DNA from: an uncultured Candidatus Binatia bacterium
GTDB taxonomy: Bacteria > Desulfobacterota > Binatia > Bin18
Assembly: GCA_965214605.1 (NCBI GenBank)
Contig: OZ243961.1
Location: 3,008,001 to 3,072,000, forward strand
Length of the DNA stretch: 64,000 nucleotides
Direction: 5' to 3'
Of this stretch, positions 1-16,344 are shown one piece after another. Position numbers and translations under genes: made by a program. The number at the start of each line of letters is the position of its first letter. The first letter of the stretch is position 1. The notes under the pieces are model-generated. The model had not been told where the DNA came from, ran no database searches, and saw only the letters and a program-made list of their open reading frames with translations.

Positions 1-190
1 ACTGTTGAGCGCCAACATTGACCCACATGTTTTCCGGCCCAACCATCATATACGGATCACGGGTCAGGCCGAGTCCTGAGACGTAGAAGCGGAGGGCCAT
101 CTCTTGGTCGGGAATCGTCACATTGACGTGTTCCATGCCGAGGATGTTGCCGACGTCTTGCGTCTTGCGGTCGTATTTGGGCTGAGCCAT
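1..190 (-). CDS. VOC/glyoxalase-family protein, N-terminal part (runs off the window)
   Basis: Manual translation from ATG at 190: MAQPKYDRKTQDVGNILGMEHVNVTIPDQEMALRFYVSGLGLTRDP. The EHVNV...FY..GLG pattern fits the VOC fold; GGAGG RBS upstream. Confidence 0.7.
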   Translation of the reverse strand, partial: MAQPKYDRKTQDVGNILGMEHVNVTIPDQEMALRFYVSGLGLTRDPYMMVGPENMWVNVGAQQ

Positions 191-318
191 GTTTTGCCTC
201 CTTTGCTCAGACTCTTTAGCGCTGATTATTTCCTTGCCCGCGTTCTTTTGCAAGCTTGGCGGCACGATGGTAGACTGACCCGGATTGAAGCGCCCATGGA
301 AAAGAGGAGGATGCCCCC

Positions 319-1515
319 ATGTCGGCACTCGACCATATTCGTATTCTCGATTTGACCCACTACGAAGCCGGGCCGGCCTGTACCGAACTGTTGGCCTTTT
401 TAGGGGCGGATGTCATTAAGCTTGAGCCGCCGGGCAAGGGGGAGCCGGGCCGCAGCTTCGTGCGCGATAAGCCGGATGTGGACTCCTATCTTTTTGTGCT
501 GCTGAACGCCAGCAAACGCAGCGTCACCCTTGATCTCAAATCCGAGCAGGGCAAAGACTTGTTCCGTGCCCTCGTCAAGCAGGTCGACGTTGTGATCGAA
601 AATTTTTCGCTGGGTACCATGGAGGAGTTGGGGCTTGGCTACCAGAGCCTGCGCGAGATCAATCCCTGCCTCGTCTACGCGACGATTAAGGGCTATGGCA
701 CCTACGGTCCGTGGAGTAGTTATAAGAGCTTTAACTCTGCCGCCCTGGCAACCGGCGGCGCGATCAGCATCACCGGCTTGCCGGACGGACCGCCGATCAA
801 ACCCGGTCCGACCATTGCTGACACCGGAACCGGCCTCCACTGCGCGGTGGGCATTTTGTCAGCCTTACTGCAGCGCAACAAAACCGGCCGTGGGCAACAC
901 GTTGAAGTGGCCATGCAAGACGCCATGGTCAACTACGGACGGGTTCCCATGCGACACCATCTCCAGACCGGGGCGGTCGTGCAGCGCAGCGGCAACCGTC
1001 TGAGCCATGCCGCACCGACCGATACCTATGCCTGTCATCCTGGCGGGCCTAACGACTACATCTACCTTATGGCCACTACTTCGGCCATGTGGGACGCCCT
1101 GCTGCGGGTTATTGAGCGGGAAGATCTGATTGACGATCCGCGCTATACCGGCCGGGCCGAACGCAACGCGCGCTTTGACGAAGTGTACGAGTTTATCAGC
1201 GCCTGGACCCGGCAGCACGACAAGTTCACAGTCATGCACAAAATGGGCGAGGTCGGTATTCCGTGTGGCGCCGTATTTGATTCCCGGGATATCCTCAGTG
1301 ACCCTCACCTGCGCGAACGCGGCATGGTAGCAACGATTGAGCACCCGACGCGGGGCGAGATCACCATGCCGACCTGCGCCGTCCAACTAGACGACTCGCC
1401 GCTTAACCTCAAACCCGCCCCACTCTTGGGGGAGCACAACGGCGAAGTGTATCATGATCTGCTGGGCCTGAGTGCCGAAGCGGTCAAGGAGCTGGAGGTG
1501 GAAGGGGTCATCTGA
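319..1515 (+). CDS. CaiB/BaiF family III CoA transferase (formyl-CoA transferase-like)
   Basis: RILDLT..EAGP..LLAFLGADVIKLEPP, NASKRSVTLDLK, DVVIENF, GYGTYGP; GAGGAGG RBS. Confidence 0.93.
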   Translation: MSALDHIRILDLTHYEAGPACTELLAFLGADVIKLEPPGKGEPGRSFVRDKPDVDSYLFVLLNASKRSVTLDLKSEQGKDLFRALVKQVDVVIENFSLGTMEELGLGYQSLREINPCLVYATIKGYGTYGPWSSYKSFNSAALATGGAISITGLPDGPPIKPGPTIADTGTGLHCAVGILSALLQRNKTGRGQHVEVAMQDAMVNYGRVPMRHHLQTGAVVQRSGNRLSHAAPTDTYACHPGGPNDYIYLMATTSAMWDALLRVIEREDLIDDPRYTGRAERNARFDEVYEFISAWTRQHDKFTVMHKMGEVGIPCGAVFDSRDILSDPHLRERGMVATIEHPTRGEITMPTCAVQLDDSPLNLKPAPLLGEHNGEVYHDLLGLSAEAVKELEVEGVI

Positions 1516-1599: not shown

Positions 1600-1900
1600 G
1601 AGTTAATAGAGGAGTGGGCTCTGTAAGCCTGCCGGTCCGGACCGAGACGCAGGGGGACCCCCACGCCCACACCATAACTTGGCTCGGCGTATACCATGGC
1701 GCCACAACCTCCGGTGTTCATCTCGCCGACAACGTCCCCCTATGCCTTGACCTCGACGACGAACCGTGGCCGGATGCTCTGATCCGAACCGGACAAGGGC
1801 GGCCATTCTTTAGTTGCCGCGGACGATGACAGTGAAGGCGCGCCCGAACTGATTGTTGAAATTGCCGCTGGCAGCGCAGGCTACGACCTGGACGACTCTG
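1600..1900 (+). pseudogene. Uma2/DUF820 endonuclease relic
   Basis: Fragments PHAHTITWLGVY, LDLDDEPWPDA and EGAPELIVEIAAGSAGYDLDD lie across frames, with no intact start or end. Confidence 0.7.
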
Positions 1901-2112
1901 GTCAAGGGGTTGGAGTGTCCTGCTCGTGTCCGCCCTGTTTGCCCCGGCGGCGGCTGGCAATCGCCCAGAGGGGTTCGTCGATATCCCTGTTTTCCCTGGA
2001 CGCCTTTTTGGGGGATTCTACGGCTACTTCCTGTGGTGGGAGCGTCTCTTTCGCCGGCGGTACGCCTAGGTGCAGGGGCAATCGGTGGCGGTGATTGATT
2101 GCTCTATGGACA

Positions 2113-2161
2113 CTCTTCCGTTCAAGACGGGCGGCCGACGTGGCGGGCAGCCGTCTTTTCT
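2113..2161 (+). terminator. Possible intrinsic terminator hairpin
   Basis: AAGACGG...CCGTCTT inverted repeat followed by TTTT. Confidence 0.35.
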
Positions 2162-2249
2162 GTGCCTCTCTCCCTGTTTCCCGGTGCGGTCCTCGGGATG
2201 AGGCTGATGGTGATTTTGCCGAGTTCGGAATTCGCTAGGGGAAAAGCCC

Positions 2250-2713
2250 GTGAGCCGGAGAGTATTTTATAGTTTTCACTGTAAACCCGATAACAGGCAT
2301 ACGGCGTAGGTGCGCAATATCGGTGGGATTGAGGGCAATAGCCCCGCTACGGATAATGAATGGGAAACCGTCAAGAGGGGCGGCGATCAAACGCTGGATT
2401 GATAAGGAAATGAAAGGCCGGTCGTGCTGGGTCGTGTTGAGCGGGGCTCACACCGCTAAGTGGATCAACTCCAAGATTCGCAAGGCGTGGGAGGACGGCA
2501 CGGGCGTTGCAGGGATTAATATCCACAGTTTGGAAGATGAGAACGGGAAAGCTTCTTCAATTTTAATCAGGATGGAATCCGTTCGATTTGCTCCCATCAC
2601 TGTCTGCAATCATGCCACGTTATAACCCGCCCTCCCGGACCGGCCAAGACCGGTATACCTGGATCGTAAAGAACTCAGCGGATGTCGTCGAAGAGGTGAT
2701 TCAGATAGGCTAG
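2250..2713 (+). pseudogene. TIR-domain protein (MTH538/DUF1863, ThsB-like), disrupted
   Basis: GTG at 2250 gives MSRRVFYSFHCKPDNRHTA*VRNIGGIEGNSPATDNEWETVKRGG, then a frameshift to AAIKRWIDKEMKGRSCWVVLSG..KWINSKIRKAW..G.G..GINIH. TAG at 2307. Confidence 0.85.
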
Positions 2714-2759
2714 GATGCCCAATAAAAAGTGGCCGAGCACCGTGGCCGGGTCTCTGAGC

Positions 2760-3390
2760 CATGTTTGACACAATGCACGGGTATCAGCCAGACAAATGGC
2801 TTGTCGAAAAAGCAGGAAGGGCCATCAGCATAAGCCGGACCGCTGGAAGCACGATGTTACGCAGTCGATAGACATGGACGAGGCTTGGCGCATAGGCTTT
2901 GCGCCGGAGGTCTACCGGACCACGCTGGCCCCGGCCACCTAGGTGGCCGGGGCCACGTTGACGGCGACAAAGGAGCTACGGGACATCGGCCGCACCACGC
3001 TGATGGACGATCGCGGTGATTGACACCCCTCTTTCGTATATGTACCTGAAAGAGCACCGGGCACTCCAGCGTCACCTCTCGAAGGCCTTTCAGCCAAGTC
3101 CCGGTGAAACGGTACGAGTCGCAGGACTACCGCCGAAACTGCCTATTCTTCCCCGAGCGCAACGTGACCATGTCGGCCCTAACCGAGGCGACCATCATCG
3201 TGAAAGCGGAAGAGACGTCGGGCACCCTGATTCGGGCACGTGCGGCTCTGCAACAAAGGCGCAAGCTCTTCATCCTCGACAACTGTTTCCACAATCCACA
3301 GCTTAACTAGCCGGCCCGGTTTGCCGAGCAGGGTGCCATCCGGATCAAGGACTACGATGACCTCCGAACGCATCTTTCCCACAGCGCCTC
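2760..3390 (+). pseudogene. DprA/Smf-like protein, disrupted
   Basis: RTIAVIDTPL, FFPERNVTMSALTEATIIVKAEETSGTLIRARAAL; frameshifts and TAG at 3308. Confidence 0.8.
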
Positions 3391-4015
3391 ACTGAGGTCG
3401 ACGAGCTGATACGGCCAGATCATTCTGCTGACCGAAGCCGACGCCTGCTACTTCATCGGCGAGTACACGGCACGTATGCCCATAGCGCTACCAACGACGT
3501 GATCTCGAATTCCAAGAAGGAGATGAATCGGCGCGGGCTGCCGGAGCGGCAGTATAAAGAACAAGCGATTCAAACCGTCGCAGACGTCCTTCGGAAAGCC
3601 CTCAATCCGGATGCTCTCCACCGTCTGACCTTCGCGCCAATTCCGCCCTCGAAGGCACGGAACGATCCGCTCTATGACAGCCGTCTCACCTGGATGCTTC
3701 ATGCTATTCGCCCCAAGCCGACTCGGGACACTCGCGGACTCATTACTCAGACAGCAAGCACGGAGTCTGTTCATCCCCAAGGCCATTCCTGAACAGTTTG
3801 AGGCAATGTATCGAATTGACCAAGCATTGGTGGAACCAGCGCCCGATTACATCGCCGTGGTCGACGACATGTTGACGGCAGGGGCGCATTGCCGAGCGGC
3901 AAAATCAATTCTTTCGGCTCGTTTTCCGAAGGCAGTCATTGTAGGGCTCTTCATCGCCCGGTGGGTGCCGGCTAGGGACGAATTCGGCGAGCACGACAAC
4001 TGTGCCGAATATTGA
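3370..4015 (+). pseudogene. Phosphoribosyltransferase (ComF-like) partner of DprA, frameshifted
   Basis: FPQRLTEVDELIRPDH, CYFIGEYT, PIPPSK...DPLYDSR, and the PRPP-binding-like VVDDMLTAGAH. Confidence 0.8.
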
Positions 4016-4379
4016 GGAGTCTGTGCCTCCTTCCGGAGTCAGGGAGGGGGCGTCGGAGGAGTTAATATAGGCAATTCGTGTCCCCTCAAGCAGGTCGGGA
4101 TCCTGCGCACGATGACCGTGAGCACTGCAGGTGTTCAGGGCTTGCGGGTTGACCTAGAGACAACGACTCCGCTCCGAAAAGGGGCGTGCCATAAGGGGTA
4201 CGGTATTGGCAAATATTAAGGAACACCATCATCCGCAATGGAATGGCTGGCTCAAGGCCGCATTTGAATAGAATGGGGCGCTGCCGATCACCGAGCGTGA
4301 CATTGAGGCCCAAGTGCCAAGAGGGCAGGGAGCGAAAACAAGGCAGGAGGCCGCCGTCATTTGGCCGAGGAACGGAATA

Positions 4380-5880
4380 TGGTTCGCCACGGCCGCGTCT
4401 TGGAGGAGCGTGGAATCGGACCGAACTCGAACAGCTAGGTCCGCAGTGTCGCTACGTCGTCACAAAAACCTTGTACGAACGGGGCTTTCCGGTCTGGTTG
4501 CACGAGCAATCGGCGCCTAGGCTGAACAAATGGATAGCGCGCGCGGCGCCCCGTGCCGGGAGCATTAACGACGACCGGACCGGTGGCAGGGTGGCCAACC
4601 AACTTCATCTCGGCCCGCAGGAGGGAATCGCTGACTTCATCGACCGCCTGTCTGCGGCAAGACCAACCGAAATACGTGTCCAGCGTAGCTACAACAGCGA
4701 CGCGGACTAGGCGAGAAAGCGGGCGAAATCCCCGGACAACCTGCTGTGCGACGTGGTGGGGCAGGCGTTTGATACGTACTTGAAGGATGAAAAGTGGGCA
4801 TGGGTGGCAAAGGAGCTGGGGGACGTCCTCCCGAAGACGGGAACGGAGCAGTCTGAACGAGGCGAAGGAACTGAGGAATGCCTTCCCGGAGACGGAACGC
4901 GGGGAGGGGACGCGCCCGGCAGCGGCGCCTGCCGGAGCAGGATACAGAAGACTGGGAAGCCGTTCTGTACTTCCTGCTCCATCTCGTGCCTGTTGATGCG
5001 GTCAGCCGTTTGAAGCATCAGCTGCGCAAATGGTCCATCCTGGAAAAGAAGGCGTCACCGGAGGCAGAAGAACAGCGGTCACCGGAGGTCACCGCCATTG
5101 GACGACTACTTAGTCTCTATCTCGACATGCACGACGCCAAGTTCGAGGGCAGTGAAGGTGTGGCTACAGCCGAAGAACTCAAGGAACTGTTCCAATCCGA
5201 AGACGCCTTTGCCCGAGCATGTCCCGGACAGCTGGGGGCCAGGACGCTGGCCACTACGTGCCCTGGCGCGGGCTGTGGGAGATTTTGCGTTTCGGCAGTC
5301 TGAAGCCGTTGATGCCGATTTTCAGGCAGCATCGCATTACAGACGAGGATGTGAAGAAGCTGACCAAGACGGAAACGCCCGAGAATGGCAAGGCCTCCTC
5401 CTCCCGCATCGCCAGAGACCAGGAGAAGCGCGAAGCGCTGCACGACCAATAGGTGAAAAAGAAAAAAAGTTTTCCCAGGAGGACAAGACCGCTTATTGCG
5501 AGGCGCTGGCCGAGGTGGTCGCGCATCGGCATTTGGCCGCCCATGTTCGCCTCAACAATCACGCCCGTTTGCATAGCCTGCTGATGGGAGTGCTTGGGCA
5601 GTTGGTTGATTATGCTGGGCTGTGGGAGCGTGATCTGTGTTTTTCGACGCTGGCGCTCATCTCACTGCAAAAGAAGAGGCCTCAGGACAATTTCTTCATC
5701 GGAGAAGAGCGCGAGGCTCTGGGCAACGGCCGGATCGTTGATGCCCTGAAAAAATTAAAGAAGAGAGGCGATAAAGGGGACGCCTCTGTACAGGCGATTT
5801 TCTGTCAATTGAAGCGCCTGTTCGGCGCTAATTTTCTCGACAGTAAAAAAGGTCTGGTCAGCATTCGCAACGATTCTTCT
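4380..5880 (+). pseudogene. cas13a: Cas13a (type VI-A effector) relic, central/C-terminal part
   Basis: Collinear fragments TEIRVQRSYNSDAD*ARKRA, DWEAVLYFLLHLVPVDAVSRLKHQLRKW, LYLDMHDAKFEG, RGLWEILRFG and HRHLAAHVRLNNHARLHSLLMGVLGQLVDYAGLWERD match Rhodobacter-type Cas13a as I recall it. It ends at IRND, the start of the HEPN2 RxxxxH motif. Confidence 0.8.
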
Positions 5881-6072
5881 TTCCTGAGACGTCAGAGAAG
5901 AGGAAGACAAAGCGGACATGTCCGGAAAAGGGGACGAAAAAACTGGAGAAATGAGAGAGGCGCCCTTCGGGAGAAGACGCTCCCCTGATCCACAGAGGAG
6001 GGCCGATACGGGACGACAACACAACTGTCCCGCGCATTTGCTCAGCCTTACCTAACATGCTAGCACGAAACC

Positions 6073-6354
6073 ATGGGTCGAGCAAAACAACGACAGCAAC
6101 GCATCCAGCACCTCGAAGAGCAAGCTGCACGGATACAAGCCGAAACGCGCCGCCTCAAAGCCCTCGTCAGTCAGGAAGAGCGGGAGCGGGAGACGCGGCG
6201 AAAAATTCTCGTTGGCTCTATGGTCCTCGCCCTCGTCGAGCGCGGCGAATGGCCCGAACAACGCTTCAAAACCACCCGTGCTCGGGCCCTGTTTGAACCG
6301 CCGCCTCAAACGGCGCCGCCCGTTACCGCTCCAGAGAGGACAATAGATGACTGA
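6073..6354 (+). CDS. Small plasmid mobilisation/TraD-like coiled-coil protein
   Basis: ERERETRRKILVGSMVL motif typical of small mob/TraD proteins. Confidence 0.6.
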   Translation: MGRAKQRQQRIQHLEEQAARIQAETRRLKALVSQEERERETRRKILVGSMVLALVERGEWPEQRFKTTRARALFEPPPQTAPPVTAPERTIDD

Positions 6355-6712
6355 ATACGAAATCGCAGCCTTAGCACTGGCTGAGAGCCGAGTGGGGATT
6401 ATGCAGGGCCAACTCGCCGTCGCGCAGGCTCAAGTCTGGGTCACCGCCGGGCTTGGCCTCCTGCAGTGCCTGTTGATTGCGGGCGGTTTATGGCTGATGT
6501 GGGGTGGGAGCAAGCAGCGGGATCAGCAGCTGGCGCAGCAGGCCGGGCAGTTCGCCGAACTGATCCGCCGCGGCGAACGCCAGGGCAAGGCGCTTGAACG
6601 TCAAGGCGAGGCGCTCGAACGTCAAGGCGAGGCGCTCGAACGCCAAGGCGAAGTCTTAGCCGAGCTGTTGCGCCGGACCACTCCGAAAACCCGGGAAGAG
6701 AAAGCAAAATGA
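6347..6712 (+). CDS. Membrane-anchored coiled-coil protein with ALERQGE repeats
   Basis: One hydrophobic helix followed by heptad repeats; overlaps the upstream stop. Confidence 0.55.
   Translation: MTEYEIAALALAESRVGIMQGQLAVAQAQVWVTAGLGLLQCLLIAGGLWLMWGGSKQRDQQLAQQAGQFAELIRRGERQGKALERQGEALERQGEALERQGEVLAELLRRTTPKTREEKAK
6590..6651 (+). repeat. 21-bp in-frame tandem repeat, three copies
   Basis: gcgct(t/c)gaacg(t/c)caaggcga(g/a) repeated three times. Confidence 0.9.
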
Positions 6713-6773
6713 GCGTGGAAAAAACCGCCAGTCAGACGCCAGGCCGAAGCGGAGGCAAGGAAGGCCCATCCGC

Positions 6774-7030
6774 ATGAGCGCGCTGGCCTTTGACGCTCAT
6801 AAAGCGTCCTGGCCCTCAGGTAGGCGGGCTTCGCCGAGCCGCAAGCTAAGGCCGTAGTCATCAACCACCATGGGCGAAGCCCTTGACGACAACGTCGCCA
6901 CCAAGGCCGCTCTCACCGAGTTCCGCGCCGTCCTCGAAGCCGAGATGGTCCAGGGGTTCAAAGCGCTCTACAAACCCGTGTGGGCCATGGCCGCTGGCAT
7001 CGTGTCACCCTGGTCAAGCTCATTCAATAG
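6774..7030 (+). pseudogene. DUF1640/CCDC90-like protein, frameshifted copy
   Basis: MSALAF*.. then MGEALDDNVATKA..QGFKALYK; paralogue of 7494..7865. Confidence 0.7.
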
Positions 7031-7246
7031 CGAGCACGGCCGGAAGGCCCTGTTATCTGGTGAGGGATTTCGGAGTGGGTTGGATCGAGATCGGGCCGTG
7101 ACGGTCCAATCGGCATGCCGTAGGGGACTGCGCCCCTACGGCACCGAAATATACGACCTCTTATTAGAGATACCCCTCCAATAAAGGGGGGATTACCCCC
7201 CGACCTGCAAGTCTGGAAACTGTGAGGCGCGGAACTATGTAGGCGG

Positions 7247-7470
7247 GTGGCGCGGCCGGCCTACCTGCACCAGCTCAGTGACAGCAGGATGAAGCAGCTC
7301 AAGCATTTCAAGCAGAATTTGCTCCTAGCGATCCGGGGTCTGGAAACGGCAGGCGTGATCAAGTCGTTTGAGTTCCGGGACGACCTGGTCCACGTCCGGA
7401 CTGTGCCGAGCCAGAGCCAGCAGTGCCACTTGATCGCGTGCCAGCCACCTCAGCTCGGCGGCGGAAATAG
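7247..7470 (+). pseudogene. TrfA-like replication initiator, C-terminal fragment
   Basis: LHQLSDSRMKQLKHFKQNL...FEFRDDLVHVRTVPSQSQQCHL resembles TrfA C-termini; no N-terminus. Confidence 0.5.
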
Positions 7471-7493
7471 GCCCGGCATTGAGGGACGCTGTC

Positions 7494-7865
7494 CTAAGAG
7501 ATAAGCTTGAGCAGCGTGACGGTCAGGCCGACGATGCCGACAGCCATGAGCCAGAGCTGTTTGTAGAGCGCTTTGAACTCCTGGGCCATCTCGGTCCGCA
7601 CAGCCGCGATGTCAGCTCCGAGGTCGGCCTTCAGGGCGCCCATCTCGGTCCGCACAGCCGCGATGTCAGCTCCGAGGTCGGCCTTCAGAACGGCCATCTT
7701 GGCTTCGAGAGCGGCGCGGGTCTCGGTGAGGTCGGCCTTGGTGGCGACGTTGTCGTCAAGGGCTTCGCCCATGGTGTTGACCACGGCCTCGGCTTGGCCC
7801 TCCGCGAAGCCGGCCTGTTTGAGGGCGATGACGGCTTTATGGGTGTCAAAGGCCAGCGCGCTCAT
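7494..7865 (-). CDS. DUF1640/CCDC90-like coiled-coil protein with C-terminal TM helix
   Basis: FDTHKAV..LKQAGF.E.QAEA...ATKADL; internal 54-bp tandem duplication; AAGGAG RBS. Confidence 0.85.
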   Translation of the reverse strand: MSALAFDTHKAVIALKQAGFAEGQAEAVVNTMGEALDDNVATKADLTETRAALEAKMAVLKADLGADIAAVRTEMGALKADLGADIAAVRTEMAQEFKALYKQLWLMAVGIVGLTVTLLKLIS

Positions 7866-7889
7866 GGCTGGGGGACTCCTTTCTCGCGA

Positions 7890-8090
7890 TCCTAGCGGAG
7901 CGGGAGTTCAAACAGTGCCCGATCCCTGTCGCATTTCAGGGCGGCCTTGAGCCGTTCTTCGGGCCACTCGCCGCGCTCGACCATTCCCAGGATCATCGCC
8001 CCAACTAAAATCTTGCCTTGCGGTGTGTCGTGCTTGTGCTCCTACTGACTGGCGAGCGCCTTGAGGTAGTGTATCTTGGTTTGTCTCCGC
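7890..8090 (-). pseudogene. Second mob/TraD-like copy, disrupted
   Basis: KALASQ*..KILVGAMILGMVERGEWPEERLK..RALFE; paralogue of 6073..6354. Confidence 0.65.
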
Positions 8091-8259
8091 CCGGCTTACT
8101 CGTCAAGCTACTGGATCCGCTGCCGCCACCTCCTAGCACGGTGCGGGGGGGTGAGCAAGAGCGGATGAGGCATCAGTCATCGCACCCTGGTGGGCTCTGC
8201 TCTTCCTCCCTCAGTATGGAGTGAGGTGTTTTGTCGGAAAAAGGTTGATGAGGGTTTTT

Positions 8260-8654
8260 GGAAACCTTAGCATAGATGATCGGGTTGATGGTCGGGATAT
8301 GGGAGGTGGTATATCGCTCCAAGGTGGTAGCCAACCAGTCCGCCCAGTGTGGGTCGTCCTCAAAGATATCCAGCAGGATATTGGGAGTCCACGAGCAGAG
8401 AGAGCATGCCTCGCCCTGGGTCAACGCGAGGATCTTGTCGGCGGTCATCTTGACGTGGCGGCACCCCGGAACTTGTAAAAACGCTCTCCGGGCTTCGTCT
8501 GCCCGCTCTTCCTTACGATATACACCTGCTCGCTGTCCTCAATAAAATCCACTTCGCTGTAAGGCGTGATGCCGAGTTTTTCCCAAATCGGCAGCGGGAT
8601 GGCAACTTCCCCGTTCACGGCAACCTTCATACATACCAACTCCTCTCCTGCCAC
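8260..8654 (-). pseudogene. AbrB/MazE antitoxin plus truncated PIN (VapC) toxin
   Basis: MKV..NGEVAIPLPIWEKLGITPYSEVDF, then (D)TNILLDIFEDDPHWADW..INPIIYA; frameshifted and truncated. Confidence 0.65.
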
Positions 8655-8673
8655 AGGGTATTACTCACCCTTG

Positions 8674-8988
8674 TCAGTACGACGGAGCAGGCCCGTCGAC
8701 CAGGGCCTGCACGAGGTGCGTCCCATCGCCAAGGAGATTCCAATTGAATAGCAGACCAAAGCCGTTTTCCGTGTCGCCGCCCGCCGCAGCAGAGTGCCTT
8801 CTTGGGGGGACCGTCGTTAAAGACGATCTCAATGCGCTCAGCGTTGCACGCCTAGCCGGAGATGAGACCGATGCCGCTCTGGAAAGCATCGCATGAGGCC
8901 CGGTCTTCTCCAGGGCAGCTCGAGCCCAGACGTGGGAGGCAGCACAGAGGAGCAGCAGACATAGGACAGTGGTCGTGGGCAGCCGCAA
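8674..8988 (-). pseudogene. Secreted protein relic carrying a SFQSGIG / FNWNLLG domain
   Basis: Signal-like MRLPTTTVLCLLLLCAASHVWA; FQSGIGLISG and DTENGFGLLFNWNLLGDGTH lie in different frames. Confidence 0.55.
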
Positions 8989-9704
8989 GCGAGACGGCGG
9001 CGTGATCTGAGTGCATGAGCCCTTCCAGGGGAGAAGAGGCAGATAGGCGCGGCCGCGCCTTAAGGGTGCACCACATAAGCCGCTTATCTCCGTGCTGCTA
9101 GGTGGGGTGCCAAAGGGACGCAGTAGGCTGAAGCCGAGCCTTGTCCAGGAAGACGGATATCGGCGGCCTCTTCTTCAACTTGCTGCGGGTAACATCGAAG
9201 AGGCTGCTCTCCGCGAGTTTTACGATATCCCCTTCCGGTAATGCGAAGAAGGCCAATTTGTGCCTACCCCCGAGCATCACAAAGAGACCGGGCGGAAAAC
9301 TCTGAATGCTGTTGTCGGAAGCTCGTGCAGGAGCAGCTGTATACCACCACAGCGCTCCTGGTTTCGCCAGCACAGCGGTAAAGACGGGCGCGGATGCGGC
9401 AAGAGTCTGAGAGGGAGCACGATGGCGGCGTTCCCTCTACCGCCCTCTTCCCGCTCTTATCTTCTTCGAATCAGGGGGATTCCAATACGGCTCCAGAGGG
9501 CAAGGGAGATGCAGAAACCTTGCTGAAATGGGCCTTCACGGCCTCCGCGCTTGTGTTCAGCGTCGCCAGATACGCCCCCACCCCGCCCAGATCACCCGGT
9601 TGCTCGGCCGGCGGTCGTACCGCTTCCCAACAGGGTATGGCCCACTTCTCCGGGGTGGTTCATTCTGGCGGGGGACGGAAGAGGCGATGCGGTGGTTCCG
9701 ATCA

Positions 9705-12130
9705 TCAGGGAATAATCACGAAGTTCTGGAGGGCCTCTTCCCATGCAAGCGTGGTGGCCTCCCCTGGGCGGGGGAAGTCCGGGACGTTCACCGTCCGGCG
9801 CACTCCCCGCAGGAAGGTCTCCCCAAGCGTCGTTATCCGCACCGTGGTCCGGGCAAACTCCACCCCATCGGCCAGCGCCCGCACCGAATACGTGCCAGGG
9901 CCCAACTCGTTCCAGTTCAGCAGCAGGCTGAAGTTGGTGTGGCTAGCACCGCAAACCCTCCGGGTGTCTCCCCGGGGTGTGCCATAGGCCGCCTGCACCG
10001 GGAGGCCTCCCAGTTCCACGACGATATCCCACCCCGAGAGGAGCCCAATCCCGCTCTGGAACGATCCTAGGGACGGGTTTTCCAGACGAGCGTGGGGCGG
10101 CGGGACAACATTCTGAGGAGAAGACGGCCACGTCATCGATATACCAACCATCTGCCGTCTGAGCCGTGGCGGACCATAGAACAAAAACGAGGCGTATGCG
10201 TTCCCCAACGACATGACTTAAGTCAACAGCAGTCTATGTCCAGGTGGGCTGAGTACCGAGGATGGTTCTGAGATGTTCCTCCGCCCACCAGCTTCCACCC
10301 TTACGTTGCCGTGCAACCCACACGCTGCCCTCATCGTCACGGGCAAAGCCGTACCGATGCCAGAAGGTCAGGGTGGCGACATTGACCCCGGTCAGGTCGA
10401 TGACTAGAGACACAAGATGAACGGCCTGATCAGGCGGATGATTCCCACGCGGGCTGTCCGTCCAGGCTCATCTCCCACTTCGGGCGGACGCCGTGCTTAA
10501 CGCCCAGGGCCGCTCCCCCGACCACCACCCACGGGGGCCGCTCTCCATATCATCGGCAAACAACACCTCATCAGCTCCGGCCTGTGTCCCCGTCCACCCT
10601 CCGATGGTGGGGGCCAGTCCGAGCGGAAGAACGGGAATTCCTCTGCACCGTATAGCTGACGCTCCCCGCACTACGGCCGCTGGCTCTTGACGTGACGCGA
10701 AGCCACGCCGGGTGGCTCACGGTCGCCCACTCGCAATCCCTCCCGCCTCGCCCTGGACGCGGGCGCGGTCAGGACTCGGGCCGAGGAAATCGGCGGACGC
10801 AGACAGAAAAGCGATCCCACTCCTGCACGTGGTCCGGGCGGCGCGAATAGTCACCCGGTAGCCGCTGGCGGTGGCGGCGACGATGGAGAGCTGGACGGCG
10901 TTTTCCGAGTCCCTCAAGCTCTCGCCTTGCGTCTACGTCGCCCCGTCATCGTTCGGGTCGCCATTGTTGTCCACGTCAACGACTTGGGCCTGCCGGTCGG
11001 CCAACCTCGTGTCTACTTTATGGAGGAGAATCCCTTCCTCGGGGATGGCCTCATCGTAGCCGGCAAACAGACGGGCCTCGACTGTGTAGAAGTCAGGCGG
11101 CGCCTCCCCAATCGGGATCTCGGCCATCAGGTAGTCCGCCGCCCCGGGCTGGGCCAGGCGTTCGAGCGTGAGGGGCGTGTTGGGCAAGGCGACATACTGC
11201 CGGTCCGCCGGAAGCCAATCCAGAAAGTCTGTGTGGTAGGCGATGGTGTGTAATGCTACGCTACCATACTCGGGATGAGGCAATGTCAATGCCCCGCTTC
11301 CCATGACATCCCACTGAGAGTCGTACGTCTCCTCATACAGACCCGAAGAATGCAGCAAGCCCAAAGCGTGGCCTATCTCGTGCGCCCAGACATCCTGATG
11401 ATGAGCGTTTGGAGGTATCCATCCATGTCACGCCCTAGAATCTCGTGAGCCCATCCGACGTCATGAAGCAGGAGTCTCCAAAGCCGAAGTTCACAAGAGG
11501 GGGATCAAAATCCCGGTTAAAACCCAGCAAAATCAGGGAAGAAGACATCTGCATCTGCGGCGGCCGCGCAATCTGTGGCTATTTTGTTGATATCATAATC
11601 ATAGTAGCCTTCGTCTCTCTCTAGGGGAGCAAGGTGAGAAGTAGCGTCGTACAATTGTGGCTGGGGCAGGTCGTACCAGCCCACCACGAGGCTACCACTC
11701 CAGTCGACGAGCCCGGCGGAGACCTCTCGCCAATAATGGACCAGGATAGGCCGTCCCCATCAGCCGCTCATCATGGCTGACCAGATGCGGGGTGATATCT
11801 GTCGCATCCGCAAAACGGCACAGAAGGGCCCCCCACGCCTGGAAACCAGTCACGCCGCCCGGAGAGACGAGGCCGCTGGGAGGGGCTCCGCCCGGAGACG
11901 ATTCACGGGCCAAGCGCCTGCTCGGTAAGGCCGTCGCCGGTGCGAGAGAGTTGACGCGCAAGCGCGGAGGACCGGCAGGCTCTAGCTCCGCCCACCGTGA
12001 CCCGTTGGCGGTTCACAGCCACCGGGCCGCCGAGTGGCTGCAGGAGGGCCACGTCAAGGAACAGTTCGCGCTTCTCGCCCGAGTCTTCGGTCAGGACGTT
12101 AGGTCATGGCAGAGGGGTGGCCGGATTCAG
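9705..12130 (-). pseudogene. Large secreted HEXXH metalloprotease (M6/immune-inhibitor-A-like), fragmented, ending in the SFQSGIG domain
   Basis: LLCRFAD; WAHEIGHA.GLLHS..YDSQWDVMG; FTVEAR..GYD; FADDMESG..W..WTDSP..LTFWHRY; then the 9705..10110 domain. Many frameshifts. Confidence 0.65.
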
Positions 12131-12939
12131 ACGGACAATCCGTAACAATTATGCTGACCTAGCCGCTGAGGAACTGCTGCTGGGCGGGCGGAGCGGAGAG
12201 CCGCCCCGTGCTCAGCAGGAACAGGACCACCTCGCTCTTCTCTTTTCGCCAAACCAGCCCCGCATCTTTTCCTCTCCTTATTTGCAAAGCGCAGGAGGGA
12301 CAATGCTGCCCTCGCTTGGCTTTTAGCCCCTCTCTCCCCGCCAGTCCACTCCTCCTTGCTGTGGCCGCCGCCCCCGGCGGGGGCGGACGGGCTTGGGGGT
12401 GGGCCGCATCTACCTCCTTTTCCCGTGCGGGGGAGCAGCGACGGCTGAGCCGCCGGGCGGGCGGCTCTGGACCAGAGACAGCGGGCTTGAGACACGAATC
12501 CCTGCTGGGTAAAAGAGGTTCATTGGAAATGCTCTTTCAGGGAAGGCTGCGGCCAACCCTCAGGACTCCGACAGCTCGACTCTATGACTGATCGTCTTAT
12601 CGCTTACGGCATCCCGTGACGGTACGGGAGCCCTCGACTGGTGGTAGGCCCTCCAGAACTCCGTGCCAGCCCTGCTCTGGTAGTGCGGTCTGAGACTGTA
12701 AGTGGCTGGGGCGGAGAGCTGGAGTGGGTGGGCGGCTCCGTTTTCTCTTTGGAGATACCAGGGCGGCGTTGGTGCCCCCTGTCCGACCAAACGGGGGAGC
12801 TGTGAGATCCCCAACCAAGCTCCCGCAGCGGGGGGCAATCAGCGTGTAGCGGGTCAGCGGCCTCGTTCTGACGGGCGTGTTGCTTTGATTCGCTCGCGGA
12901 GCTCTTCAACCACGACTCGTAAACTTTCCAGGGATATCT

Positions 12940-13236
12940 CTACTCTTTCTGGTCGGCCAGGGCATCCATTTTCTCAGCCAGCTCAAAGTCAAGCTGACTG
13001 ATGCCGCCTACATCGTGGGTAGCCAGATCGACTCTGACGGTGTTGTAGACGTTGAACCATTCGGGGTGATGGTTCATGGCTTCGGCGACCAGAGCAACGC
13101 TGGCCATAAAGCCGAAAGCCCCGACAAAATCTTGAAACTTGTACTCACGGTGGAGCTTGCCCTCAATCACCGCCCAGCCGGGACGATCCGCCAGGGCAGT
13201 TTGAATCTCGGTGTCTGAAAGTCTGCGTCGTGCCAT
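12940..13236 (-). CDS. phhB: Pterin-4-alpha-carbinolamine dehydratase
   Basis: AEAMNHHPEWFNVYNTV..L.THD.GGIS..D..LA. Confidence 0.95.
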   Translation of the reverse strand: MARRRLSDTEIQTALADRPGWAVIEGKLHREYKFQDFVGAFGFMASVALVAEAMNHHPEWFNVYNTVRVDLATHDVGGISQLDFELAEKMDALADQKE

Positions 13237-13333
13237 AACTGCCTCCTTTTGGGTATCGGGACTCTAACCTGACATAATCTTGACAGCCAGACAATAAGAG
13301 TGCCAGACTAGACAGTTGGAAAAGGAGGGGAAC

Positions 13334-14425
13334 ATGGCCCAAGCAGTCTCCCTACAGTCCCCGCGCCTTGAAGCCCAGCAGGACGACCTGATCGAAGACT
13401 TATTTGCCCGGGGTGTGACCGACGGACTGCCGGTCGTGCCGCCGACCGAAGAGCGGGTAGACGCCATGCTCAGCACGGTGGAGCGCGGGTCCCAAGAGAT
13501 ACTCGGAATGGTCGGACCCAACTACGGTCCGGCGACCCTAGAAAAAGTCGCGATTAACGCGGTCATGGCCGGCTGCCATTCGAGTTACTTCCCGGTGGTC
13601 GTGGCCGCGGTGGAGGCCATGTGCGAGGAACAGTTTGCCCTACACGCCATTAATGTAACGACCTTCTCGGCCACCCCGCTGACGATTATTAACGGCCCGA
13701 TCCGCCGTCAGATCGGGGTCAACTGCGGCCATAACGCCCTCGGCCACGGCTTTCGGGCCAACGCCACAATTGGCCGGGCGATTCGTCTGATTATTCTGAA
13801 TATCGGCGGCGCCAAGCCGCAGGAGATCTGTAAAGCGACCCTCGGTCATCCCGCCCAGTTCACATTCTGTGTGGGCGAAGACGAAGAGGAGAGCCCCTGG
13901 GAGCCACTGCACGTTGAGCGCGGCTTTCGGCCTGACCAGAGTACTGTCACCCTATTTGGTGGCCACTCACCATTTCAGATCAGTGACCACGCCAGCCGGA
14001 CGGCCGAGCAACTCGCCCTGTCCCTAGGCTGGACGATGACCTCGGTCTGGAATCATAAAAACTTTCCGGTCTTTTCCGATACAGCGCTCATCCTGGGACC
14101 GGAGCACGCTAAGACCTTTGCCCAAGACGGCTGGTCAAAGAACGATATTCGGCAGTTTCTCTTTGACAAGATTCGGCGTCCGTACCGAGAACTCCGAGCT
14201 GGTGTCAACGGGGGAGAGGGGGCTGGCGTCAGCATGCTCAGAGGGGTCAATGCCAGCACCGAACCACCGACCGACGACACCCTCTACCCCAAGTTTCCCA
14301 AGCCCGAGAGCATTCTCATCCTTGTCGCCGGTGGCACGGCCGGCCGTTTTTCCGCGGCCGTGCCCGGCCTCGTTCGCGGCAGCTCGGGCAGCACCATCAC
14401 CACAAAAGAAATTCAGCCCGCATAA
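13334..14425 (+). CDS. Conserved protein that accompanies UGSC-family selenoproteins
   Basis: TDGLPVVPPT.ERV..ML, EKVAINAVMAGC, RANATIGRA, EESPWEPLHVERG; AAGGAGG RBS. Confidence 0.8.
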   Translation: MAQAVSLQSPRLEAQQDDLIEDLFARGVTDGLPVVPPTEERVDAMLSTVERGSQEILGMVGPNYGPATLEKVAINAVMAGCHSSYFPVVVAAVEAMCEEQFALHAINVTTFSATPLTIINGPIRRQIGVNCGHNALGHGFRANATIGRAIRLIILNIGGAKPQEICKATLGHPAQFTFCVGEDEEESPWEPLHVERGFRPDQSTVTLFGGHSPFQISDHASRTAEQLALSLGWTMTSVWNHKNFPVFSDTALILGPEHAKTFAQDGWSKNDIRQFLFDKIRRPYRELRAGVNGGEGAGVSMLRGVNASTEPPTDDTLYPKFPKPESILILVAGGTAGRFSAAVPGLVRGSSGSTITTKEIQPA

Positions 14426-14435
14426 GGAGGATCGT

Positions 14436-14978
14436 ATGACACGTTTACTAGACCCGACCTCTCAGGTCGAACGCAACGCCATAGAGCTTGCCCCGCGACT
14501 AGAGACCTTGGCCGGGACAACGATCGGCCTGCTCGATATTAACAAGGCCAAAGGCGAATTTTTCCTGGACCGTTTGGAAGAAGTCCTGCGCCAGCAGTAC
14601 GGGGTCAAGGAGGTCTTACGCCGCCGCAAAGTCACCCCGGGCCGAACCGTTCCGGTTGAGGTCAAACAGGAGTTGCAAGAGAGGTGCGACGCGGTCATTG
14701 AAGCCCTCAGCGATTGAGGAGCCTGCATTTCGTGCAGTTCGCACGATGTCGTGGGTTTTGAAGAAAACGGAATTCCGACCGCTAATGTTGCAACCACCGA
14801 GTTTCTGACCGCCGCCCACGCCCAGTGTTCCGCTCTGGGTCTCCCCCGGTACGAGCCAGTCCTGGTTCCCCATCCGATTCAGCCCAAGCTGCCCGAAGAG
14901 GTCCGTGCGCTCGTGGACGGGGTGGTTGACCAGATTGTGGCCAAGCTGCTGAGAGCCAAAGAGCGGCAGGCAGCGTAA
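14436..14978 (+). CDS. UGSC-family selenoprotein (Sec at TGA 14715-14717)
   Basis: AAGGAGG RBS then ATG 14436. The frame continues through TGA as EALSD-U-GACISCSSHD..EENGIP to TAA 14978; hairpin just downstream of the UGA. Confidence 0.85.
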
Positions 14979-15000
14979 TACCGCCGTATAAGAGAGACCG

Positions 15001-15906
15001 GTGCCGACCATCATTGCCACTGACCTCGCCTTCCCCGAGGGGCCGGTGTGGACGGCCGACGGCAGTCTGTACATCACCGAGATCGGGGCCGGGCAGCTCC
15101 GCAAGATTGATGCAGACGGCCAATCATCCGTGTTTGCCAAACCGGGCGGTGGACCAAATGGGGCTGCACGCGGTCCGGACGGCGCCCTGTATGTGACCAA
15201 CAACGGCGGGTTCTCGTGGCACAACGGTCTACCGGTCGGACCGGCTGCGGACTATGAGACCGGTCGGATTGAACGGATTGATCAGACCGGCGCGGTCCAA
15301 CGGCTGTATACCGAGTGTGATGGGACGCGCCTGAGTGCCCCCAACGATCTGGTCTTTGACGCCGAGGGGAATTTCTACTTCACCGACCCGATCCAGCGCG
15401 ACCCTGCGGTCCGTGAGCCTCTCAACCGGCCGACCTCGCGGCCTGGACAGGTCTACTATGCCAGCCCCGACGGGAGCTTCATCCGTCGGGTGGCCGGCCC
15501 CCTCCAGCATCCAAACGGTATTGGCATCAGCCCGGACGGTACAACGCTCCTGGTTGCCGAGACCTTTGCCGCCGCGGTGTGCGCGTTTCCCATTCTCGGA
15601 CCCGGCCAGTTGGGCCAGCGGCGGCCGTTTGGCAGCCTGCCCCAGGGCTATCATCCGGACGGTTTTTGTCTGGATGAGGACGGCTATGCGTTGGTGTGTG
15701 GAGTGCTAGGCGGTGGCATTGTCGTCTTTGATCCAAACGGCAAACAGGCCGAGGTGCTGGCCTGTGAGGATAGAGCCGTCACCAACGTTGCGTTTGGCGG
15801 ACCCGAGTATACAACGCTCTACATTACCGAGTCCGGCCTGGGCCGAGTGGTGACACGACCCTGGCGACGGCGGGGACTCGTATTGTTCTCTGATCGAACG
15901 GCCTGA
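15001..15906 (+). CDS. SMP-30/gluconolactonase/LRE family protein
   Basis: FPEGPVW, PNG, PNDL..D..G..YFTDP, PDG..LD..G, TNVAFGG. Confidence 0.92.
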   Translation: MPTIIATDLAFPEGPVWTADGSLYITEIGAGQLRKIDADGQSSVFAKPGGGPNGAARGPDGALYVTNNGGFSWHNGLPVGPAADYETGRIERIDQTGAVQRLYTECDGTRLSAPNDLVFDAEGNFYFTDPIQRDPAVREPLNRPTSRPGQVYYASPDGSFIRRVAGPLQHPNGIGISPDGTTLLVAETFAAAVCAFPILGPGQLGQRRPFGSLPQGYHPDGFCLDEDGYALVCGVLGGGIVVFDPNGKQAEVLACEDRAVTNVAFGGPEYTTLYITESGLGRVVTRPWRRRGLVLFSDRTA

Positions 15907-15914
15907 GCTTGACG

Positions 15915-16316
15915 TCAGCCCCGGACCCGCTTCATTTCTTCGGTCAGCGGAGCAATGGTCTTGGCGTCAAAATAGTCGTTCCAGCTGCAGATCTTGCCCT
16001 CGCTATTAAATTCAAACCGACCGACCACCGGCAGCTTAACGGTGACATTGCCAACGGCCCAGGTTTCGAGCCGTTCGTTCATCACGGTGTTGCCGGATGA
16101 GGTGGTGTGCTTGATGTCCATCTTCTCCAAGATGTTCTTGTCGCCCTCAATAAAGCTGTCCAACACCTGGCGCACCCCGGCGTGGCCGGTCACCGGCTCC
16201 CAGGGTATATTGTGATAGCTGACGTCCTCAGACAGATATTGTACGCTCTTGGCTAGCTCACCGTCCTCCAGAGACAGACAGAAATCCGTCACCTTTTTTT
16301 CATTCTCTGCGCTCAT
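15915..16316 (-). CDS. Limonene-1,2-epoxide hydrolase / SnoaL-like protein
   Basis: YHNIPWEPVTG, VMNER, LPVVG.FE...GKI..WNDYFD. Confidence 0.85.
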   Translation of the reverse strand: MSAENEKKVTDFCLSLEDGELAKSVQYLSEDVSYHNIPWEPVTGHAGVRQVLDSFIEGDKNILEKMDIKHTTSSGNTVMNERLETWAVGNVTVKLPVVGRFEFNSEGKICSWNDYFDAKTIAPLTEEMKRVRG

Positions 16317-16344
16317 ACGATCCTCCTTGTTCTATGTCTCATCC

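Follow-up and report, generated by a model that had tools for sequence, protein, structure and literature searches.

The Cas13a proteins of solved structure, PDB 7os0_A (1304 aa) and 5xwp/5xwy (1159-1160 aa), are complete and active, unlike the gene remnant described here. Among solved structures, the best match was 7os0_A, whose residues 961-1018 aligned with the last piece of the relic (E 3.9e-10); only these 58 residues, a helical segment that precedes the HEPN2 motif, gave a significant alignment. We take 7os0 to be Cas13a of Rhodobacter capsulatus; this would agree with the R. capsulatus-type likeness remarked on in the initial annotation of the locus. The GC-rich Cas13a clade is well populated, with proteins of about 1160-1200 aa and 36-nt repeats. 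Forty-three named cas13a loci, titled Binatia, Nitrospirales, Alpha- and Gammaproteobacteria, Dehalococcoidia, Spirochaetaceae and others, were recovered by a pattern scan of species-representative genomes, for which an alignment query gave the loci and a single-protein query gave none. An array with a period of 66 was present in 30 of the 43, mostly directly 3′ of the gene, and in 34 of the 43 the frame ran on from the match start for 1100 aa or more with no interruption; the longest frames reached only 654-894 aa in L015, L026, L034, L048 and L054. Within a collection of 5.8 billion proteins, 123 matched the last piece of the relic at E ≤ 1e-10, and the best identity was 67%, so that no near-identical intact copy is on record in that collection. 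A literature search found no paper joining Cas13a and Binatota.

Among the 61 genomes searched (the source genome, G000, and 60 relatives), five matched Cas13a, three of them above the cut-off. Excluding the source genome, four of the 60 genomes matched, all of the same family (4/36), and 400 further genomes, sampled evenly across the phylum, gave no match. The initial annotation had called the system rare, which holds locally by these counts but not in public data, given the 123 proteins above. It had also suggested that relatives may hold an intact Cas13a, and two do: G006 and G035 carry full-length genes (Table 1) with arrays of 36-nt repeats and ~30-nt spacers just 3′ of cas13a, the array of G006 counting about 29 repeats and its Cas13a containing both R-N-x-x-x-H motifs. 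The G033 copy and the G002 stub resemble the relic in clade, in family and in a loss still in progress, but they differ in what is left, since the G033 copy has nearly its full length and one stop, G002 retains no more than the N-terminal start, and the relic keeps the middle-to-late part of the gene. No array was found near the G033 cas13a within 10 kb on each side. In G006, the interval between der and queG contains the intact gene and, next to it, a type ISP-like restriction-modification enzyme of 1164 aa with N6_Mtase and Type_ISP_C domains (L009 13808-17299, minus strand).

The locus lies in a window of 64,000 nucleotides, the whole stretch of DNA that was analysed, from a source genome of 4.37 Mb in 9 contigs that is 99.99% complete. 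The plus-strand segment 4414-5874 of this window was confirmed as a cas13a pseudogene fragment descended from the Cas13a family. In an NCBIfam profile scan of its five frame pieces, NF038188 (Cas13a) was the sole family returned for each, and the profile order was collinear across the five, from 612 to 1090 of 1192 positions, which is far beyond chance. PADLOC models of Cas13a matched four of the five pieces, with no match for the 5219-5449 piece, and a Pfam scan of all five returned no family; the Cas13a entries PF28192 and PF28350, listed for database relatives, gave no match in a Pfam copy that perhaps did not include them. Searches by tblastn with three full-length relatives placed the relic at residues 567-1029 of the intact G006 protein, with 56-64% identity and E-values down to 5e-89, over frames 1, 3, 2 and 1. 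At the nucleotide level, blastn against the G006 cas13a gave 73-74% identity over 4414-4769 and 4928-5874, and the similarity ends at 4414 and 5874. The initial annotation had proposed a Cas13a relic from peptide blocks in three frames, and its window peptides TEIRVQRSYNSD, LYFLLHLVPVDAVSRLKHQLRKW and HARLHSLLMGVLGQLVDYAGLWERD are all present. It had pointed to a Cas13a HMM and a homology search as the check on this proposal, with the lack of a collinear match counting against it, and the collinear match was obtained; its span of 4380-5880 contains the Cas13a region, but the homology begins at 4414 and not at 4380.

Table 1. Features of the relic and its island in the window, and Cas13a genes in genomes of the same genus or family
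Feature	Position	Strand	Details
Island holding the relic	1897-12809		~11 kb; not present at this site in five other genomes of the genus
Thoeris ThsB TIR-like fragment	2323-2622	+	PF08937 profile 44-99 of 100; PADLOC ThsB 2e-19
Dead ShosTA toxin-antitoxin pair	3104-4012	+	PADLOC E 3e-19, 1e-9, 2e-13
ShosA (DprA-like) fragment	3104-3307	+	also Pfam DNA_processg_A, 8e-14
ShosT (phosphoribosyltransferase) fragments	3499-3789 and 3674-4012	+	two frames
Plasmid-type gene fragment	4057-4355	+	internal stop; 76-79% nucleotide identity to L056
Relic, piece 1	4414-4839	+	frame of 4243; NF038188 profile 612-709 (E 7e-7, 27.7 bits) and 713-746 (E 0.004, 15.2 bits), NCBIfam; holds in-frame TAG 4708-4710
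Relic, unconserved linker	4840-4931	+	first frameshift (frame 1 to frame 3) inside; exact site cannot be placed
Relic, piece 2	4932-5236	+	frame of 4878; NF038188 profile 773-872 (E 1e-18, 66.9 bits), NCBIfam; ends at shift in G5 run 5234-5238
Relic, piece 3	5237-5452	+	frame of 5219; NF038188 profile 886-940 (E 2e-5, 23.1 bits), NCBIfam; ends in TAG 5450-5452
Relic, piece 4	5455-5874	+	frame of 5098; NF038188 profile 944-1090 (E 6e-25, 87.4 bits), NCBIfam; entered via shift in A-rich run 5456-5468
tblastn segments of the relic	4414-4839 (frame 1), 4932-5288 (frame 3), 5204-5464 (frame 2), 5458-5874 (frame 1)	+
Inverted duplication 3′ of the relic	6096-7003 against 8123-7531		70-84% identity
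Multi-copy family, short ORFs	9700-12240		66-77% DNA identity; several places per same-genus genome
Cas13a of G006 (same genus)	L006 1345-4875	-	1176 aa; 788 bits; no stop
Cas13a of G035 (same family)			1171 aa; 784 bits; no stop
Cas13a of G033	L010/L005		834 bits; near full-length; one TAG where relatives have W
Cas13a of G002 (same genus)	L012 9816-10034		N-terminal stub, residues 1-69 up to 1-112 by query

The relic contains two in-frame TAGs and at least three frameshifts, and no continuous ORF is left. Both TAGs, which the initial annotation had placed at 4708 and 5450, were found in frame: the first belongs to the frame of ORF 4243-4710, where intact relatives align R, N or K, and the second, in the frame of ORF 5219-5452, stands opposite a W (TGG) that is conserved among the relatives and from which it differs by one base change. 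The linker is delimited by the tblastn segments, which stop at 4839 and resume at 4932 in a different frame. Homology ends with S-I-R-N-D at 5860-5874, the opening residues of the HEPN2 R-N-x-x-x-H motif, which relatives read as R-N-D-L-x-H, and the relic is left without the histidine and all that lies beyond it, in agreement with the earlier description of a gene that stops at IRND inside this motif. At the other end, the N-terminal ~566 residues including HEPN1 are missing, and the HEPN1 motif of the relatives, LRNASFHF at residues 457-464 of the G006 protein, falls within this missing part. The loss of the N-terminal half with HEPN1, likewise described at the outset, extends to the whole genome, in which this half was found nowhere.

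A six-frame NF038188 search of the whole genome returned the same four places of the relic and none elsewhere, with no match anywhere to profile positions 1-611 and 1091-1192, and tblastn with three intact Cas13a proteins against the genome (E ≤ 10) gave the relic and chance-level matches only. Neither a CRISPR-like array nor the 36-nt repeat of the clade was found within the window; in the whole genome, the 24-nt core of this repeat was not found with up to three mismatches, and blastn-short of repeat units from the arrays of the named loci gave matches of 20 nt at most. The other CRISPR arrays of the genome carry repeats unrelated to the type VI-A repeat. One of them, at G000:C1:528854-529950, consists of ~16 copies of a 36-nt repeat, unrelated to that of type VI-A, with ~30-nt spacers, and has cas1 and cas2 matches ~0.2-1.5 kb away; further arrays occur at about 1.69, 2.30-2.31 and 3.92-3.93 Mb. 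As the initial annotation had stated, no cas1, cas2 or array is nearby: the window contains neither cas1 nor cas2, and those of the genome lie far off, beside unrelated arrays. The lack of nearby cas1/cas2 carries no weight, because a scan of 10 ORFs on the flanks of the intact genes in G006 and G035 gave no cas1/cas2 match either.

Judged from its sequence, the fragment cannot make an RNA-guided RNase: a guide source, HEPN1, a complete HEPN2 and a continuous frame are all lacking. The relic belongs to Cas13a by descent but fails as a functional member on every test: the top single piece scores 87.4 bits against the curated NF038188 cut-off of 150 bits and coverage falls short of full length, neither of the two HEPN R-x-x-x-x-H catalytic motifs is present in full (HEPN1 absent, HEPN2 cut), and no 36-nt-repeat array adjoins it as in a type VI-A locus.

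The relic shares 54-64% identity with intact proteins over 456 aligned columns, compared with 54-82% for the eight closest intact proteins among themselves, and its decay at the amino-acid level is modest, with identity within the intact range. It keeps 139 of the 158 columns that are invariant in these eight proteins, and 19 are replaced. In the leave-one-out control, seven of the eight intact proteins lose 3-10 of 161-168 invariant columns, the exception being L018, which loses 27 of 185, more than the relic does. The dS between the relic and the G006 gene was 0.62 (Nei-Gojobori), the lowest of eight comparisons, the other seven being at least 1.19, and omega (dN/dS) for this pair was 0.40 versus 0.15-0.31 across 28 intact pairs. 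The losses of invariant columns and the raised omega indicate that constraint on the relic is apparently relaxed. The G006 protein is the closest copy by dS and by identity (64% over 443 aligned residues), and its domain order is identical; nevertheless, the G006 gene is full-length with both HEPN motifs, an array and a type ISP neighbour, whereas the relic has none of these and sits elsewhere in the genome.

For the core CoA-transferase gene (window 319-1515), the single core gene used for comparison, dS was 0.57 to G006, 0.68 to G005 and 0.69 to G004. A quick tree from an unfinished search grouped the relic with G006, L018 and L033 (SH-aLRT 90), with the inner fork unresolved and with terminal branches of 0.35 for the relic and 0.25 for G006. 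In our reading, based on this one core gene and the unfinished tree, the relic and the G006 gene would have split at about the time when the species did, and on the same basis the relic may have been unconstrained for the minor part of the time since that split.

The locus is almost certainly a non-functional remnant of a type VI-A effector, left by a cas13a gene that was present in the lineage or on a resident mobile element and then lost its function and decayed. A cas13a of the GC-rich clade, to which G006 and G035 belong, could have been carried in either way. The first ~566 codons, HEPN1 among them, would have been lost through a deletion or recombination that fused the remainder to plasmid-derived debris, and a separate event would have taken away the last ~147 codons, starting within the HEPN2 catalytic motif. 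The latter loss presumably took the array too, which in intact relatives sits just 3′ of the gene, and the remaining 1.46 kb may then have acquired its two nonsense mutations along with three or more frameshifts, of which two lie in homopolymer runs. We infer both the past function in the lineage and this order of events, and the gene probably once worked in this chromosome. The initial proposal that the lineage once had a type VI-A system agrees in part with these results, as dS to G006 (0.62) is close to that of the core gene (0.57), but the relic occupies a different site from the G006 gene and abuts debris of a plasmid gene.

The surroundings of the relic bear on whether the gene ever worked here. 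The gap between window positions 3-1511 and 12950-16329 measures 84 bp in G005 and 45 bp in G002, and about 0.9, 1.2 and 2.6 kb in G003, G004 and G006, which places the relic in an island of ~11 kb that is private to this genome. Apart from the 296-aa frame of the relic, the longest ORF of the island is at most 197 aa. The 5′ neighbour of the relic is the plasmid-type gene fragment, which places the junction within 4356-4413, and the 418-aa homologue of this fragment comes after ParA on an 80.6-kb contig of G004, the ParA families being matched. With a neighbour of this type, the Cas13a piece could have come in already dead, and it is possible, though unlikely, that it never worked here and arrived truncated in a mosaic of plasmid or island debris that integrated with the CoA-transferase gene on one side and the gene at 12950 on the other. 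Such an arrival is consistent with the privacy of the island among the five same-genus genomes compared, with the ParA-associated 5′ neighbour, and with the three different contexts in which the three Cas13a traces of the genus (the relic, the G002 stub and the intact G006 gene) are found. The absence of Cas13a from the 400 other genomes of the phylum sampled points the same way, as does the mixture of Binatia, Nitrospirales, Alpha- and Gammaproteobacteria records in the close clade of the gene tree, which indicates horizontal spread. Against it, the dS of the relic to G006 equals that of the core gene, as would be expected under descent from the ancestor of the genus, and the relic region resembles its surroundings in G+C content (0.55-0.60). 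A donor from within the genus would give the same figures, and the two readings are therefore hard to separate.

Flank synteny of the relic with the cas13a loci of G006, G033 and G035 was not found, and the der-queG interval of this genome (C1, about 446.4-450.4 kb) gave no Cas13a match. This interval (L061) spans ~4 kb with few ORFs and weak remnants of the type ISP enzyme.

The stretch, or part of it, is contained in 11 public sequencing runs. Contigs of four runs from three studies, compared with window positions 3900-6400, showed no indels and two substitutions (5396 T>C and 5572 C>T); the run X5 records that span 4340-4890 and 4883-6400 were identical to the window, and run X6 covered the stretch partially. 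One of the compared runs may be the source of the assembly, and the other studies are independent of it; all compared runs are contigs, so that rare variants cannot be excluded. The frameshifts, which the initial annotation had marked for verification, are thus reproduced without indels by contigs from three studies, and the lesions are real and not assembly errors.

Retention of the remnant for some new role, such as that of a truncated protein or RNA from ORF 5098-5988 (296 aa), is very improbable. The identical relic is present in runs of several samples and studies and is therefore stable in the population, and the 296-aa frame stays open across the last piece; however, the TTG start of this frame lies within a different reading frame of the gene, the first 119 residues result from out-of-frame translation and match no family, 19 of the 158 clade-invariant residues are replaced with omega raised, and the neighbouring genes are also dead. 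That the gene is intact in the cell, its stops and shifts being assembly errors or being bypassed by TAG read-through and programmed frameshifting, is scarcely credible, for although both in-frame stops are TAG, as is the one in the near-full-length G033 copy, and two shifts fall in homopolymer runs, a classic site of long-read errors, the runs of three studies give the same sequence with zero indels, both TAGs are one base from codons of the relatives (TGG for W, with AAG an option at 4708), and a read-through product would still be without residues 1-566 and all past the R-N-D of HEPN2, parts that were found nowhere in the genome. TAG recoding was rejected.

With a decayed type VI-A effector as the preferred reading, the locus should be annotated as a cas13a pseudogene and not as a defence system. 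This is ordinary gene decay, by which the existing knowledge of Cas13a is unchanged, and the locus offers a clean example of stepwise type VI loss inside a graveyard of defence genes. Intact members of the GC-rich Cas13a clade, which occur in a genome of the same genus as well as in named records from Binatia, Nitrospirales and proteobacteria, could be mined as enzymes. Just the C-terminal part of the domain remains in the ThsB fragment of the island (Table 1), and a second ShosTA locus of the genome, L060 (G000:C1:878000-881500; ORFs 906-1826, 1741-2277 and 2124-2516), shares ~70% DNA identity with window positions 3005-3765 and has a full-length ShosA (307 aa, 306 bits) and a ShosT split over two frames. 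Thoeris ThsB, ShosTA and Cas13a are all self-toxic defences of the abortive-infection type. It is doubtful, however, that the dead ThsB, ShosTA and Cas13a side by side in one private island, the split second ShosTA and the decaying cas13a genes of the family reflect a systematic, cost-driven shedding of suicidal defences rather than random decay.

On the 3′ side of the relic, 12 ORFs of the island part 5875-12809 were scanned. The ORF at 6073-6354 was considered as a MobC/TraD-like gene and dropped, as Pfam and PADLOC gave no support, and Pfam gave no match for the three ORFs tested from the multi-copy family at 9700-12240. The inverted duplication carries a small coiled-coil ORF and CCDC90-like/DUF1640-type genes, and related copies of it are scattered in the same-genus genomes, three of them on one small contig of G005.
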